NCBI RefSeq assembly: GCF_030384885.1
Contig: NZ_CP128613.1
Reading direction: 5' to 3' (one strand)
Length of the DNA: 64,000 nucleotides
Origin: Escherichia coli
Lineage (GTDB): Bacteria > Pseudomonadota > Gammaproteobacteria > Enterobacterales > Enterobacteriaceae
Position 1 is the first letter of the stretch. Every line of letters starts with the position of its first letter. The notes beneath the pieces were generated by a model. It saw only the letters and a list, made by a program, of their open reading frames with translations. It had not been told where the DNA came from and ran no database searches. Below are positions 2,519 through 56,522 of the stretch, piece after piece. The position numbers and the translations under genes are program-made.

Positions 2519-3115
2519 TCAGGCATCTTCTCTTTTTAATTTTTCGTTTATGAGATTATTTCTTTCCCATAATCCGGCAAAACGTGCAGCATTACTGGCG
2601 GTATAACGCACAGTATGGCGAATATTTCGATGCCCGAGGTAATCCTGAATTAAACGGGTATCTGCACCACGCTCCGCCAGTTCATAACCGCAAGCATGCC
2701 TTAACATATGAGGATGAGTCTGCGTCACGGTTCCAGCTTCAATACCGGCATCGCGAATAATGCGATAGGCCTGCTGGCGAGAAAGTCGACTCCCGCGGCG
2801 AGAAATAAATATGGCGTCGGTCTGGTCAGCGCCTTTCCAGTTAATACGTTCCTGGGTCCAGCGCTCCACAGCTTCACGCTCATCAAAACGTAACGGGTGA
2901 ACGGTAGAAAATCCGTTCTTCAGTCGGCGAATATTTATTCGACCTTCGTTAAGGTCAAGATCCTGATAATGCAGATCAAGCAGTTCACTAATACGCATCC
3001 CATGCCGATATGCCAACAAAATTAGGCAATAATCTCTGGCTCCCGTTGCCCCGTAACAAACCGCCTGCATCATGTCCTGAACTTCTTTACCGGTAAGATA
3101 ACGACGTTTACTCAC
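2519..3115 (-). CDS. fimE: Fim switch recombinase FimE (tyrosine recombinase, ON-to-OFF)
   Basis: 198 aa, MSKRRYLTGKEV..., tyrosine recombinase motifs (HxxR...Y); GTG start; ends 48 bp from the switch repeat. Confidence 0.95.
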   Translation of the reverse strand: MSKRRYLTGKEVQDMMQAVCYGATGARDYCLILLAYRHGMRISELLDLHYQDLDLNEGRINIRRLKNGFSTVHPLRFDEREAVERWTQERINWKGADQTDAIFISRRGSRLSRQQAYRIIRDAGIEAGTVTQTHPHMLRHACGYELAERGADTRLIQDYLGHRNIRHTVRYTASNAARFAGLWERNNLINEKLKREDA

Positions 3116-13077: not shown

Positions 13078-13875
13078 CTACTCATCATCGTCTTCCACTG
13101 GTTCCAGCACATCAAGCGCAACTCTCACCATAGCGATAGAACCAATACGAATGAAAGCATCTTCTCCATCTTCGTCGGTTATCATAAAACGAACCGTGGT
13201 TTCAGGCTCGCAATCCAGCGCGTCAAAAAAAGCATTCAACTGGCCGATATCATCCGTCTCTTCGTTTTGCGGCGCATCTGGCTCAACACTCAGTGGAATC
13301 ACTGGTCCGCCGTTTACCAGCGTGATATGGACATTAAAATAATCGTCTTCGTAGGCATCATCCTCTTCGTCAACGATTGGCCGCAGACCATCAGAAAGGA
13401 ACTGATGAAATACCACTTCACGCATATTTAACGCATAACGATACTCGGAAGAATCAAAAACGAAGAAGCGTTCTATGTTTGGAGTGTTTTTTTCCTGAAA
13501 ATAATAATAAAACCTCCGCTTATCCACTGCTGAAATGGGCAACAGCAAATAGTCCCGCTGCCCCTGTAGCCAAAGTTTTACGGTCCAGAGACCGCTATCC
13601 ATTTCAATGCCGCTTGTGGCTATAGCCTCAAGATCTTCATCAGTTTTACGACGCTTTTTGCGGAAGTCATTTATCAACCGATCGCTTTCCGGGAACACTA
13701 CGTTTAGAGGCTTATCCAGAGCATTACATATTGCCTGTGCGAGCCCCAGCTTTGCAGCAACCTTCCCGGTTTCGATACGCTGAATTTGTTGCTGGCTGGT
13801 GCCGACCATAAACGCCAGCTCGCGCTGGGTGATAGATAGCTGGGTACGGAGCTGTTTGATGTTGTTCTGTAACAT
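13078..13875 (-). CDS. XRE-family HTH domain fused to an acidic C-terminal domain of unknown function
   Basis: N-terminal helix-turn-helix LSITQRELAFMVGTSQQQIQRIETGK; about 200-aa C-terminal region ending VEDDDE; preferred start ATG 13875 with GAAGGA RBS (alternative 13884). Confidence 0.7.
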   Translation of the reverse strand: MLQNNIKQLRTQLSITQRELAFMVGTSQQQIQRIETGKVAAKLGLAQAICNALDKPLNVVFPESDRLINDFRKKRRKTDEDLEAIATSGIEMDSGLWTVKLWLQGQRDYLLLPISAVDKRRFYYYFQEKNTPNIERFFVFDSSEYRYALNMREVVFHQFLSDGLRPIVDEEDDAYEDDYFNVHITLVNGGPVIPLSVEPDAPQNEETDDIGQLNAFFDALDCEPETTVRFMITDEDGEDAFIRIGSIAMVRVALDVLEPVEDDDE

Positions 13876-51539: not shown

Positions 51540-53678
51540 ATGACACCGCATGTGATGAAACGAGACGGCTGCAAAGTGCCGTTTAAATCAGAGCGCATCA
51601 AAGAAGCGATTCTGCGTGCAGCTAAAGCAGCGGAAGTCGATGATGCAGATTATTGCGCCACTGTTGCCGCGGTTGTCAGCGAGCAGATGCAGGGCCGCAG
51701 CCAGGTGGATATCAACGAGATCCAGACCGCCGTTGAAAACCAGCTGATGTCGGGTCCATACAAACAACTGGCTCGTGCTTACATCGAGTACCGTCACGAT
51801 CGCGATATTGAACGTGAAAAACGCGGTCGCCTGAATCAGGAGATCCGTGGTCTGGTCGAGCAGACCAACGCCTCGTTGCTCAACGAAAACGCCAACAAAG
51901 ACAGCAAGGTGATTCCAACCCAGCGCGACCTGCTGGCCGGGATTGTGGCTAAACACTATGCACGTCAGCACCTGCTGCCGCGTGACGTGGTGCAGGCGCA
52001 TGAGCGTGGCGATATTCACTATCACGATCTCGATTACTCGCCGTTCTTCCCGATGTTCAACTGCATGTTGATCGACCTGAAAGGTATGCTGACCCAGGGC
52101 TTTAAGATGGGTAACGCCGAGATTGAACCACCGAAGTCGATCTCTACGGCAACCGCGGTAACAGCGCAGATTATTGCTCAGGTCGCCAGTCATATTTATG
52201 GCGGCACCACCATTAACCGTATCGATGAAGTGCTGGCACCGTTTGTCACCGCCAGCTACAACAAACACCGCAAGACCGCAGAAGAGTGGAACATCCCGGA
52301 CGCCGAAGGTTACGCTAACTCTCGTACCATCAAAGAGTGCTACGATGCCTTCCAGTCGCTGGAGTACGAAGTAAACACCCTGCACACCGCCAACGGTCAA
52401 ACACCGTTTGTGACCTTTGGTTTTGGTCTGGGCACCAGCTGGGAGTCTCGCCTGATTCAGGAGTCTATCCTGCGTAACCGTATCGCGGGCCTCGGTAAAA
52501 ACCGTAAAACTGCGGTGTTCCCGAAACTGGTGTTTGCGATTCGCGATGGCCTGAACCATAAAAAAGGCGATCCGAACTACGACATCAAACAGCTGGCGCT
52601 GGAGTGCGCAAGCAAGCGCATGTATCCAGATATCCTGAACTACGATCAGGTAGTGAAAGTCACCGGTTCGTTTAAAACCCCGATGGGCTGCCGCAGCTTC
52701 CTCGGCGTGTGGGAAAATGAAAACGGCGAACAGATCCACGATGGTCGTAACAACCTCGGCGTGATCAGCCTGAACCTGCCGCGCATTGCGCTGGAAGCGA
52801 AAGGCGATGAGGCCACCTTCTGGAAGCTGCTGGATGAACGTCTGGTGCTGGCACGTAAGGCGCTGATGACCCGTATCGCTCGTCTCGAAGGCGTTAAAGC
52901 GCGCGTGGCCCCGATCCTCTATATGGAAGGTGCTTGTGGCGTTCGTCTGAATGCTGACGACGACGTTTCTGAAATCTTCAAAAACGGTCGTGCGTCTATT
53001 TCGCTGGGTTACATCGGCATCCACGAAACCATTAACGCGCTGTTTGGCGGCGAGCATGTGTATGACAACGAGCAGCTGCGCGCGAAAGGTATCGCCATTG
53101 TTGAACGTCTGCGTCAGGCGGTGGATCAGTGGAAAGAAGAAACGGGTTACGGTTTTAGCCTTTACAGCACGCCAAGTGAAAACCTGTGCGACCGCTTCTG
53201 CCGTCTCGATACCGCGGAGTTTGGCGTGGTGCCGGGCGTGACTGATAAAGGTTACTACACCAACAGTTTCCACCTCGATGTGGAGAAGAAGGTGAACCCG
53301 TACGACAAGATCGACTTTGAAGCGCCTTACCCGCCGCTGGCGAACGGTGGCTTCATTTGCTACGGCGAATATCCAAACATTCAGCACAACCTGAAGGCGC
53401 TGGAAGATGTCTGGGATTACAGCTATCAGCATGTACCGTATTACGGCACCAATACGCCGATTGATGAGTGTTACGAGTGTGGTTTTACCGGTGAGTTTGA
53501 GTGCACCAGTAAAGGCTTCACCTGCCCGAAATGTGGTAACCATGACGCCTCCCGTGTGTCGGTGACTCGCCGCGTGTGCGGATATTTAGGTAGCCCGGAT
53601 GCGCGTCCGTTTAACGCTGGTAAGCAGGAAGAAGTTAAGCGCCGCGTTAAACATTTGGGAAATGGGCAGATCGGTTAA
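51540..53678 (+). CDS. nrdD: Anaerobic ribonucleoside-triphosphate reductase NrdD
   Basis: 712 aa, C-terminal glycyl-radical region and zinc-ribbon cysteines (CYECGF...CPKCG). Confidence 0.97.
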   Translation: MTPHVMKRDGCKVPFKSERIKEAILRAAKAAEVDDADYCATVAAVVSEQMQGRSQVDINEIQTAVENQLMSGPYKQLARAYIEYRHDRDIEREKRGRLNQEIRGLVEQTNASLLNENANKDSKVIPTQRDLLAGIVAKHYARQHLLPRDVVQAHERGDIHYHDLDYSPFFPMFNCMLIDLKGMLTQGFKMGNAEIEPPKSISTATAVTAQIIAQVASHIYGGTTINRIDEVLAPFVTASYNKHRKTAEEWNIPDAEGYANSRTIKECYDAFQSLEYEVNTLHTANGQTPFVTFGFGLGTSWESRLIQESILRNRIAGLGKNRKTAVFPKLVFAIRDGLNHKKGDPNYDIKQLALECASKRMYPDILNYDQVVKVTGSFKTPMGCRSFLGVWENENGEQIHDGRNNLGVISLNLPRIALEAKGDEATFWKLLDERLVLARKALMTRIARLEGVKARVAPILYMEGACGVRLNADDDVSEIFKNGRASISLGYIGIHETINALFGGEHVYDNEQLRAKGIAIVERLRQAVDQWKEETGYGFSLYSTPSENLCDRFCRLDTAEFGVVPGVTDKGYYTNSFHLDVEKKVNPYDKIDFEAPYPPLANGGFICYGEYPNIQHNLKALEDVWDYSYQHVPYYGTNTPIDECYECGFTGEFECTSKGFTCPKCGNHDASRVSVTRRVCGYLGSPDARPFNAGKQEEVKRRVKHLGNGQIG

Positions 53679-53701
53679 TCTTCACTCTGCGCTAAGCAAA
53701 T

Positions 53702-53786
53702 GCCGGATGTGGCGTAAACGCCTTATCCGGCCTACATTTGGCAACGGCTGTAGGCCTGATAAGACGCAACAGCGTCGCATCAGGCG
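53702..53786. repeat. BIME (two REP units) between nrdD and nrdG
   Basis: GCCGGATGTGGCGTAAACGCCTTATCCGGCCTACA and GTAGGCCTGATAAGACGCAACAGCGTCGCATCAGGC. Confidence 0.8.
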
Positions 53787-53835
53787 TTGATTGCCTGATA
53801 CCGCCTACACGCGGACTGATAAGCCAGGCGAAATA

Positions 53836-54300
53836 ATGAATTATCATCAGTACTATCCTGTCGACATCGTCAACGGCCCCGGCACTCGCTGCACCCTGTT
53901 TGTCTCCGGGTGTGTTCATGAATGCCCCGGTTGCTATAACAAAAGCACCTGGCGGGTAAATTCCGGTCAGCCATTTACCAAAGCAATGGAAGACCAGATC
54001 ATTAACGATCTGAATGACACCCGCATCAAACGCCAGGGTATTTCCCTCTCCGGCGGCGATCCGCTGCATCCGCAAAACGTGCCGGATATTCTAAAACTGG
54101 TACAACGCATCCGCGCCGAATGTCCGGGTAAAGACATCTGGGTGTGGACAGGCTATAAATTCGACGAACTCAACGCTGCGCAAATGCAGGTTGTTGATTT
54201 GATTAACGTGCTGGTCGACGGCAAATTTATGCAGGATCTAAAAGACCCTTCCCTGATCTGGCGCGGCAGCAGCAATCAGGTGGTGCATCATTTGCGTTAG
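53836..54300 (+). CDS. nrdG: Anaerobic RNR activating enzyme NrdG (radical SAM)
   Basis: 154 aa from MNYHQYYPVDIVNGPGTRCTLFVSGCVHECPGCYN; ORF-track upstream extension trimmed. Confidence 0.95.
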   Translation: MNYHQYYPVDIVNGPGTRCTLFVSGCVHECPGCYNKSTWRVNSGQPFTKAMEDQIINDLNDTRIKRQGISLSGGDPLHPQNVPDILKLVQRIRAECPGKDIWVWTGYKFDELNAAQMQVVDLINVLVDGKFMQDLKDPSLIWRGSSNQVVHHLR

Positions 54301-54540
54301 TCACTCATCCAGCCGGACCTTAATGGCCTCCTGTGGGTTGGCCAGTCGTTCCCTGACAGTGCGTAACAAGGCTTCTTCACTATCACTGACAGTGAGCGTT
54401 TTTACCGGCATTCGTCCATTTTCCGCAACGTACTGAAACAGCAGCCGCACTGCTTCAGTAGGCGTGATATTTAATTTTTCCAGCACCGCATAAGCCTCAT
54501 TTTTCAGTTTGTCATCCAGGCGGACGTTAAGTGTGGCCAT
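54301..54540 (-). CDS. Orphan RelB/DinJ-like ribbon-helix-helix antitoxin-family protein
   Basis: 79 aa, MATLNVRLDDKLKNEAYAVLEKLNITPTEAVRLLFQYVAENGRMP aligns with the DinJ N-terminus; no toxin ORF adjacent; stop codon abuts nrdG stop. Confidence 0.6.
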   Translation of the reverse strand: MATLNVRLDDKLKNEAYAVLEKLNITPTEAVRLLFQYVAENGRMPVKTLTVSDSEEALLRTVRERLANPQEAIKVRLDE

Positions 54541-54730
54541 TATGCCTCCGGTAATTATGAAAAGTGTAATGCATTATAGCATTACATATGCATTACATTC
54601 ATTTCTGGAAAACGCCTCGCAAAAATGAGGACGACACGCAGGAATATGCGGTAGTGAAGATAGATATTGCGGTGATTTTTCGAAGGGGAAGAAAGCGTTG
54701 GGCGGTAACGTTTCACCGCCCAATAAGGAA

Positions 54731-55120
<390 letters not shown>

Positions 55121-55169
55121 TCACTTCCTTTTTCTTATTAAGATTTGGCGCGGCAGGTCGCGCCTTTTT

Positions 55170-56522
55170 TTACTGCCCGGCGATTTTCATCTCCGGCAAC
55201 AGCACAGAACCACACTGTATATTGCTGCGTGTTTCAATATCGTTACCGACGGTGACAATATTGCGCCACATATCTTTTAAATTACCTGCGATGGTGATTT
55301 CGCTAACCGGATACTGAATTTCGCCATTCTCTACCCAGAAGCCCGCAGCACCACGGGAATAATCACCGGTAATGGCACTCACTCCCTGGCCCATCAGTTC
55401 CGTCACCACCAGCCCGGTGCCCATCTCTTTGAGCATTTGTTCGAAGCTTAGCCCTTGCCCGGCAATTCGCCAATTATGAATACCGCCTGCATGTCCGGTG
55501 CTTTTCAGCCCCAGTTTACGTGCGGAATAGCTGGTCAGCAGCCACTGGGTCAGAATGCCATCTTTAATAATATCGCGACGCTCGGTGCGCACACCTTCGC
55601 TGTCGAATGGCGTCGATGCCAGCCCTTTCAGCAGATGCGGATGCTCTTCAATGGTCAGCCAATCCGGTAGAATTTGTTTACCCAGCGAATCCAGCAGGAA
55701 GGTGGATTTACGGTAGACCGATCCACCCGCTATCGCCCCAACCAGATGGCCAAAAAGCCCGGTTGCCACTTCATTGGCAAAAATTACCGGCGCTTTCATG
55801 GTGGAAAGTTTACGCGGTGACAGGCGCGATAAAGTACGGCGAGCACAGTCGGCCCCGACCCACTCTGGCGTTTGCAGATCGCTCATCGCGCGACCAATGG
55901 TGTAGGCGTAATCACGCTCCATATCGCCATTTTCTTCGGCAATTACGCAGCTTGAGAGTGAATGACGCGTTGAGCAATAACCCTGCAACATGCCGTGGCT
56001 GTTGCCAAAAACTTTTACGCCGTAGTGGCTGTTAAAACTGCCGCCTTCGGTATTGGTGATGCGTTTATCCGCCTGTAATGCTGCCTGTTCTGCGCGAGCC
56101 GCCAGTTCAATAGCTTCATCCGGGGAAACTTCCGCAGGGTGAAACAAGTCGAGATCCGGCGCGTCAAAGGCCAGCAGCTCTTTGTCTGCCACGCCGGCAC
56201 AGGGATCTGGCGAAGTGTAACGAGCAATATCCAGCGCTGCCTGTACGGTGCGGGCAATGGCCTGCGGGCTTAAATCGGTAGACGATGCGCTACCTTTACG
56301 GTTCTGGTGATAAACAGTGATCCCCAGCGCGCCATCGCTATTGAATTCGACATTCTCCACTTCGCCATATCGCGTGCTAACGCTAATGCCGGTGGTCTTG
56401 CTGACGGCAACTTCCGCACCGTCCGATTTGCCTGAGGCCAACTCCAGCGCAGTGGAAACTGCTTCTTCCAGAATCTTGCGCTGCGCTTCAACTTGAGAGA
56501 TTACTTTCATTGCAAGTGCCAT
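55170..56522 (-). CDS. pmbA: Metalloprotease PmbA (TldE)
   Basis: 450 aa, [29 protein letters not shown]... Confidence 0.95.

Follow-up and report, generated by a model that had tools for sequence, protein, structure and literature searches.

The window analysed here, a 64-kb stretch of an Escherichia coli genome, carries nrdD, nrdG, a 79-aa open reading frame (ORF), cybC and pmbA in that order, with nrdG on the plus strand and the ORF, cybC and pmbA on the minus strand. The ORF (54301..54540, minus strand) encodes a protein, MATLNVRLDD...KVRLDE, that we identify as a solo RelB-type antitoxin on the basis of the ORF call, profile and structure matches and alignment with alleles that carry a full toxin-antitoxin pair. 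It matches the Pfam RelB profile PF04221 over residues 1-76 (E=7.6e-16, 58.2 bits against a cut-off of 22.4), the NCBIfam RelB/DinJ antitoxin equivalog NF008412 over residues 1-79 (E=1e-37, 128.2 bits, cut-off 96) and TIGR02384 (72.2 bits, cut-off 45.65); all three scores exceed the curated cut-offs, and such profile similarity is far beyond chance. Comparison with solved structures gives an end-to-end alignment with K-12 RelB (4FXE; E=4e-20; 37 of 79 residues identical), while residues 1-48 align with 2K29, the N-terminal DNA-binding domain of RelB (E=3.3e-13). These two alignments indicate a ribbon-helix-helix DNA-binding domain at the N-terminus. Residues 49-79 in turn align to residues 49-78 of RelB in the RelB-RelE complex (4FXE), only the terminal leucine being missing.

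None of the DinJ structures was matched by the protein at E<=0.01, the natural solved structures matched being those of RelB only, and by these comparisons it is nearer to RelB than to DinJ. A DinJ-specific identity was set aside on these grounds, and also because the partner encoded in full alleles matches RelE structures (2e-35) and is not of the YafQ type. The gene itself is already known as a member of a well-studied antitoxin family: in every solo genome inspected RefSeq assigns it the accession WP_000212714.1 and the product name 'type II toxin-antitoxin system RelB/DinJ family antitoxin', and the exact 79-aa sequence is recorded, with names of the RelB/DinJ type, on at least 1000 contigs in public databases.

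The antitoxin gene is convergent with nrdG (53836..54300, plus strand) and the two stop codons abut, the nrdG TAG occupying 54298-54300 and the antitoxin TGA, which reads TCA on the plus strand, 54301-54303. The terminator scan detected no terminator-like site on the plus strand 3' of nrdG, either ahead of the antitoxin gene or further on before cybC, so that nrdDG transcripts, when induced under anaerobiosis, may extend across the antitoxin gene in the antisense direction. On the other side lies cybC (54731..55117, minus strand), which encodes 128 aa including a signal peptide and gives a complete Cytochrom_B562 match (E=5.8e-34). Its stop codon is directly followed by a terminator-like hairpin (54698..54723, minus strand), recognised by the terminator scan, as inverted repeat I2 and from alignment with empty alleles. 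In the K-12-derived strain ER2683 (locus L004, 2146-2580, compared with 54731-55186 of the window) cybC is missing its first 7 codons together with the ATG, and the sequence upstream is unrelated. PGAP still annotates cybC in ER2683 as a 121-aa CDS with the start codon ATT; the C-terminus reads ...NSYHKKYR there and ...NAYHQKYR in the window.

The preliminary description of this stretch had proposed an orphan antitoxin of the RelB/DinJ type, convergent with nrdG through abutting stops and adjoined by no toxin gene, next to an intact cybC with its signal peptide that was described as a pseudogene in K-12; it had suggested a profile search and a look at reference annotation as checks. Both checks bear it out, as does the ER2683 allele for cybC, and the family assignment can be narrowed towards RelB.

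Some features of the surroundings are recorded here for completeness. The nrdD-nrdG spacer (53665-53817) contains three overlapping REP/BIME-like palindromic units, which yield sub-threshold matches to the Rfam family naRNA4 (34-40 bits against a gathering score of 59.5). A non-coding RNA in the region was considered and rejected, the Rfam scan of 53500-55300 having returned nothing beyond these sub-threshold matches of the naRNA4/REP type in the nrdD-nrdG spacer, and none in the cassette. The 601 bp around the ORF are 100% identical to strain 2013C-4282, and the use of that genome as an equal of the window was likewise discarded: its segment NZ_CP027579.1 2913999-2977998 does not match the window position by position over 64 kb, a naive comparison giving 12576 mismatches that are probably due to indel offsets. 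Consequently, the annotation of its tRNA-Leu (leuX) island, which carries a RelE/ParE and CopG pair and a CbtA/YeeU pair, is not transferable to the window.

Upstream of the ORF we observed an arrangement that, read on the gene strand, runs ATGTAATGC-AT-ATGTAATGC-TATAAT-GCATTACA. This predicted operator and promoter (54565..54597, minus strand) was delineated from the repeats I1, I3, D1 and D2, from direct reading of the sequence and from conservation across genera. Three TGTAATGC half-sites (54565-54572, 54579-54586 and 54590-54597), two direct and one inverted, lie around a perfect -10 hexamer, TATAAT (54573-54578, minus strand), which is extended by a preceding TGC. A Shine-Dalgarno sequence, GGAGG (54545..54549, minus strand), precedes the ATG by 4 nt and is conserved across genera, and the operator/promoter layout is preserved in about 30 enterobacterial species loci. 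A strict scan for the two-hexamer sigma-70 consensus returned no promoter; the putative promoter is called from the perfect extended -10 element and its conservation, not from the scan. Promoter, operators and ribosome-binding site all look intact, and the gene appears to have its own promoter overlapped by repeated operator sites, as is expected of the RelB/DinJ family. In the 64-kb window these three sites form the only cluster of TGTAATGC, and no copy lies in the upstream regions of nrdD or cybC. Single copies occur at 13721, 16245, 22598, 28547, 34397, 38437, 39752 and 56074, none of them paired or clustered; the total in the window is 11 (these eight and the three at the promoter) versus 2.65 expected from shuffles.

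What the locus lacks is the adjacent, co-transcribed toxin of a complete type II module. A tblastn search of the whole 64-kb window with the cognate toxin produced only chance-level matches (E>=0.03), and the small ORFs in 54574-54734 (48-49 aa) have no Pfam match. A hidden toxin nearby was thereby rejected, given that tblastn of both toxin and antitoxin over the window recovers the ORF only.

The state of this site in the species was examined in 5426 complete E. coli genomes by means of a 601-bp query across the nrdG/cybC site, which matched 5425 of them but extended over most of its length in only 451, the genomes that carry the cassette. The commonest state is empty: in about 4970 of the 5426 genomes nrdG and cybC are separated by a 38-bp hairpin spacer, and the hairpin at 54698..54723 marks the cybC-side boundary of the segment that takes the place of this spacer. 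The nrdG/cybC hairpin of the empty alleles is absent from the cassette-bearing ones. A full pair, with the toxin gene present, is found in 393 genomes; its antitoxin has 80 aa (WP_000212715.1), and between antitoxin and nrdG it encodes a 96-aa RelE-family toxin (WP_001105433.1 or variants) whose stop codon abuts nrdG. The solo state was counted with a 61-bp probe spanning the junction described below, one uninterrupted match being required, and exactly 60 of the 5426 genomes share this junction, among them O145:H28 strains, IAI39, CE10 (O7:K1) and 2013C-4282. Finally, in the O158:H23 strain CFIAFB20140388 (locus L014, 402-2702) the toxin is split by IS100, an IS21-family element with istA/istB, and the 80-aa antitoxin is intact; by this insertion the antitoxin has become solo in function through a separate, independent event.

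Alignment of the window with a full-pair allele revealed that exactly 284 bp are missing and that these correspond to the toxin gene. The corresponding segment of full alleles is bounded by a direct repeat and extends from the first copy up to the other: TCATCCAG[C/T]CG is located at the 3' end of the toxin gene and TCATCCAGTCG at the 3' end of the antitoxin gene, where the toxin gene starts. Both copies are present in every full allele, strain GF4-3 having a perfect 11-bp repeat, and they owe their existence to the ending ...RLDE that toxin and antitoxin share. A single copy, TCATCCAG[C/T]CG, survives in the window at the deletion junction (54305..54315, no strand assigned), where the alignment places the crossover in the CG at 54314-54315; the toxin-side variant, with C at 54313, is the one found here. 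On the minus strand, 54301..54313 aligns with the stop codon and the last four codons of the RelE-family toxin, and the same bases in full-pair alleles end the 96-aa protein (...ATKRLDE and stop) beside nrdG. The solo ORF is accordingly chimeric, its codons 1 to about 76 coming from the antitoxin gene and its last codons and TGA from the toxin 3' end, which accounts for its length of 79 rather than 80 aa and for a stop that abuts nrdG. As judged from the alignment, the 284-bp loss bears the classical signature of a deletion between short repeats, by slippage or illegitimate recombination. The preliminary description was thus right to see a solo gene, but in treating it as free-standing it missed that the gene is the survivor of a relBE-like operon.

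The lost toxin matches the RelE structure 4V7K (E=2e-35) with 61 of 94 residues identical. It retains K52, K54, R61, R81 and Y87, which we take to be the catalytic residues of RelE, and with these in place it was probably active before the deletion.

To place the E. coli alleles in a wider context we assembled 35 loci, one genome per species, with the antitoxin as query, so that the set is biased toward intact antitoxins. The antitoxin is immediately convergent to nrdG in 31 of the 35, toxin-coding sequence follows 3' of it in 33 (26 intact, 7 frameshifted or truncated), and the toxin ATG usually overlaps the end of the antitoxin gene by 11 nt. The pair lies beside nrdG in Citrobacter, Salmonella enterica arizonae and diarizonae, Enterobacter, Klebsiella pneumoniae, Kluyvera, Kosakonia, Trabulsiella and Pluralibacter. 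From the gene numbering, STM4449-STM4450 of Salmonella Typhimurium is presumably the same locus as the E. coli pair. As the pair adjoins nrdG across genera of Enterobacteriaceae, the distribution points to an old, ancestral paired state from which the solo and empty states are derived. Decay of the toxin is not confined to the deletion seen in the window: 9 of the 35 loci have a toxin gene that is missing through deletion, frameshifted or truncated, and the antitoxin is intact in all 35 of this antitoxin-selected set. Broken toxins were detected in E. coli E69, E. whittamii, Citrobacter NCU1, Enterobacter asburiae, Huaxiibacter, Kosakonia quasisacchari and Rosenbergiella (loci L017, L019, L021, L028, L029, L041 and L046; toxin positions about 2733-3020). 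In L042 and L047 the toxin stop is lost and the frame extends to about 117 aa.

The sequence beyond the operators adds to this picture. In Klebsiella and Salmonella a gene for a 636-660-aa regulator ends just upstream of the antitoxin promoter; the encoded protein has PRD, PTS_EIIA_2 and HTH domains, and in L043 and L022 it ends in ...ECVSRF before the stop. Upstream alignment delimits in the window a conserved block (54603..54640, minus strand) that seems to be in part a relic of the 3' end of this PRD/EIIA regulator gene: the former TGA stop reads TGC, and about 40 nt of homology to that junction are kept. The block was considered as an extra regulatory site, but it better fits such a relic of a gene that E. 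coli has lost, although the homology fades within about 40 nt. A tblastn search with the regulator protein against the E. coli spacer was not significant. The relic constitutes further evidence of a reductive history at the site.

The number of times the 284-bp deletion arose can be approached through the haplotypes. The ten solo alleles fall into several cassette haplotypes, each nearer to a sampled full-pair haplotype than to the other solo groups. Over 413 positions, O145:H28, IAI39 and CFSAN061772 show 2 differences from the GF4-3 full allele and 13-18 from the group of the window; SCPM-O-B-8794 is 2 positions off the full alleles of Ec-U4-19 and E69; and Escherichia sp. E1V33 and E. whittamii have a divergent right-hand segment in common. 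At the junction, the nrdG stop (TAG or TAA) and the base at 54313 (C or T) occur in all four combinations. The simplest reading of these patterns suggests recurrent deletion at the same repeat; they would also suit one deletion spread by homologous recombination in short tracts. Parsimony on small neighbour-joining trees of 16 loci gives 3-4 state changes from few informative sites, and with recombination in E. coli such counts do not separate the two.

Both the polymorphism of the solo alleles and the conservation of the pair give a hint that the antitoxin is still under selection. In the ten solo alleles six polymorphic codons show synonymous changes only and two are amino-acid-changing, against about 58 synonymous and 176 non-synonymous sites; unconstrained evolution would be expected to yield a ratio of about 3:1 in the opposite direction. 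The protein is identical in 7 of the 10 solo alleles, including that of the window, on backgrounds with differing nrdG and cybC alleles, and it is also identical in E1V33, which represents a separate species-level lineage of Escherichia. In type II systems the antitoxin is usually less conserved than the toxin. The reverse is seen here: in 23 intact pairs across genera mean identity is 81% for the antitoxin versus 74% for the toxin, antitoxin identity is the higher in 84% of 253 pairwise comparisons, and pN/pS is 0.17 versus 0.23. Within the antitoxin, conservation across genera is highest in the DNA-binding half (mean identity 86% versus 75%). These observations run contrary to a purely neutral remnant, but they hint at selection only weakly, because much of the polymorphism may be older than the deletions and the loci were collected with the antitoxin as query. 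If the deletions are recurrent, most of the solo polymorphism would have been inherited from full-pair ancestors, in which the antitoxin was indispensable. Moreover, a gene of 240 bp gathers few disabling mutations over within-species time.

Taken together, we favour the view that the ORF is the surviving, autoregulated antitoxin half of an old relBE-type operon whose toxin was lost by a repeat-mediated deletion, and that it has no essential present job; we would put the probability of this reading at roughly 0.7. The starting state was a chromosomal relBE-type operon convergent to nrdG, as it still stands across Enterobacteriaceae. The 284-bp deletion between direct repeats of 8-11 bp (TCATCCAG[C/T]CG) then removed the toxin gene and fused the antitoxin frame to the last codons and stop of the toxin, shortening the protein from 80 to 79 aa. 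The promoter, the three-site TGTAATGC operator and the ribosome-binding site appear untouched by this event, and since its expression signals are preserved the solo gene is probably still transcribed. Its ribbon-helix-helix N-terminus would bind its own operator, with repression probably weaker in the absence of the toxin as co-repressor, and its C-terminal half, to judge from the alignment with RelB, should still bind a RelE-type toxin. K-12 relBE is reportedly autoregulated in this manner and its antitoxin is said to be degraded by Lon; by analogy, RelB-like dimers would be expected to occupy the sites, to repress more weakly when alone and to form a Lon-labile protein. Such a harmless remnant could persist because loss of the toxin is safe whereas loss of the antitoxin first is not, and because 240 bp decay slowly. 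The analysis demonstrates what the gene is, where it came from, the signature of the deletion and how the alleles are distributed in the population; expression, DNA binding and competence to bind a toxin are likely properties of the gene, and a selected function probably is not.

A selected role would nonetheless give these observations another meaning. It is conceivable, though we regard it as rather unlikely, that the orphan is maintained because it neutralises related RelE-type toxins of plasmids, phages or paralogous relBE loci, and so blunts post-segregational killing, an idea discussed for orphan antitoxins in general (PMC7354431). The excess of synonymous polymorphism and the occurrence of the same protein in diverged backgrounds would be explained, as would repeated loss of the toxin with the antitoxin kept; the toxin-binding C-terminal half is whole save for its last leucine, and homologues of the lost toxin of the RelE/ParE family occur on 3937 plasmid records, 1678 of them from Escherichia. 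The mobile homologues are, however, no closer than the K-12 RelBE paralogue. On true plasmids, identity to the lost toxin peaks at about 67%, and the best plasmid antitoxins reach no more than 54% identity to the ORF; higher plasmid identities were set aside, as they came from records of several megabases or from a 550-kb replicon entered as a plasmid. Phage toxin matches reach at most 69%. Type II pairs are, furthermore, usually insulated from one another, and anti-addiction has not been demonstrated as a common use of orphans (PMC7354431). The polymorphism pattern, as noted, can come from full-pair ancestors.

A broader form of the same thought takes the antitoxin to be what selection maintains in the nrdG-linked module, the solo gene being a domesticated RelB with a toxin-independent job. 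It draws on the repeated loss of the toxin, by the 284-bp deletion, by IS100 and, in at least seven further species, by frameshifts, next to an antitoxin that stays intact and evolves more slowly. We hold this to be improbable too, at about the level of the preceding proposal. If it were true, the job might be immunity to incoming RelE-type toxins or transcriptional control, possibly tied to anaerobic antisense read-through from nrdDG.

Still less probable is the specific proposal of a domesticated transcription factor acting, independently of any toxin, on nrdDG, cybC or distant targets. In its favour one may cite the DNA-binding half as the most conserved part, the greater conservation of antitoxin than of toxin, and the place beside nrdG, which is kept family-wide. 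Yet autoregulation would lead one to expect a conserved DNA-binding half just as well, TGTAATGC sites cluster in the window nowhere but at its own promoter, the other eight being scattered singletons, and the gene is absent from about 4970 of 5426 E. coli (>90%), so that no conserved regulatory role is needed in the species. That the solo state is original and the toxin was inserted later, or that an unrecognised toxin lies nearby, is very improbable: all that speaks for it is that the two states differ by one 284-bp segment. Against it, toxin sequence with an identically overlapping start occupies this position in other genera, the terminal bases of the solo ORF are those of the toxin 3' end of full alleles, the segment is flanked by repeats as a deletion predicts, and the window has no toxin homologue and no Pfam match in the small flanking ORFs.

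If the ORF is a toxin-deleted remnant, as we favour, its importance is modest, it being an annotated family member of a kind that is common, and toxin loss between short repeats is an ordinary and common route of decay for toxin-antitoxin pairs. What is new here is the origin by a repeat-mediated 284-bp toxin deletion from an ancient nrdG-linked relBE-type pair; our search found no literature on this E. coli nrdG/cybC antitoxin locus or its deletion. The site offers a clean natural series, empty, full pair, repeat-deleted toxin and IS100-disrupted toxin, in otherwise similar genomes that include the pathogens O145:H28 and O7:K1. This series could be used to study the function of solo antitoxins (cross-protection, regulation, plasmid exclusion) and the rates at which the halves of a pair decay.

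Orphan antitoxins are abundant in E. coli (PMC10790755), and those of Klebsiella derive for the most part from pairs that have degraded (PMC7354431, section 4.2). The ORF resembles the orphans of these E. coli and Klebsiella pneumoniae surveys as an antitoxin without an adjacent toxin whose surroundings betray a former pair, and differs in that the exact deletion, its repeat signature and its distribution over several haplotypes are resolved here. STM4449-STM4450 of Salmonella Typhimurium appears among relEB-type modules in PMC3868539, which has been retracted and serves here for the locus name only. With the ccd locus of Erwinia chrysanthemi, set against that of the F plasmid, the ORF has in common that a chromosomal antitoxin could in principle neutralise a mobile toxin of the same family (PMC7354431, section 2.3); unlike that complete pair, for which cross-neutralisation was demonstrated, it is toxinless and has no close mobile homologue. 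Nearer at hand is relBE of the Qin prophage in K-12, whose RelB (4FXE, 2K29) is of the same family and length, with 37 of 79 residues identical, both proteins apparently combining a ribbon-helix-helix N-terminus with a C-terminal half that wraps the toxin. The lost partner is 65% identical to K-12 RelE with the catalytic residues kept, and the TGTAAT-type repeats that overlap the -10 element here resemble those reportedly found in the K-12 operator relO. The ORF differs from K-12 relBE in being a paralogue beside nrdG rather than in a prophage, in having no toxin downstream and in a C-terminus one residue shorter. Closest of all is the full pair WP_000212715.1 and WP_001105433.1 of other E. 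coli, with an antitoxin identical save for the terminal leucine and with the same promoter, operator and flanks, from which the window departs by the missing toxin gene.
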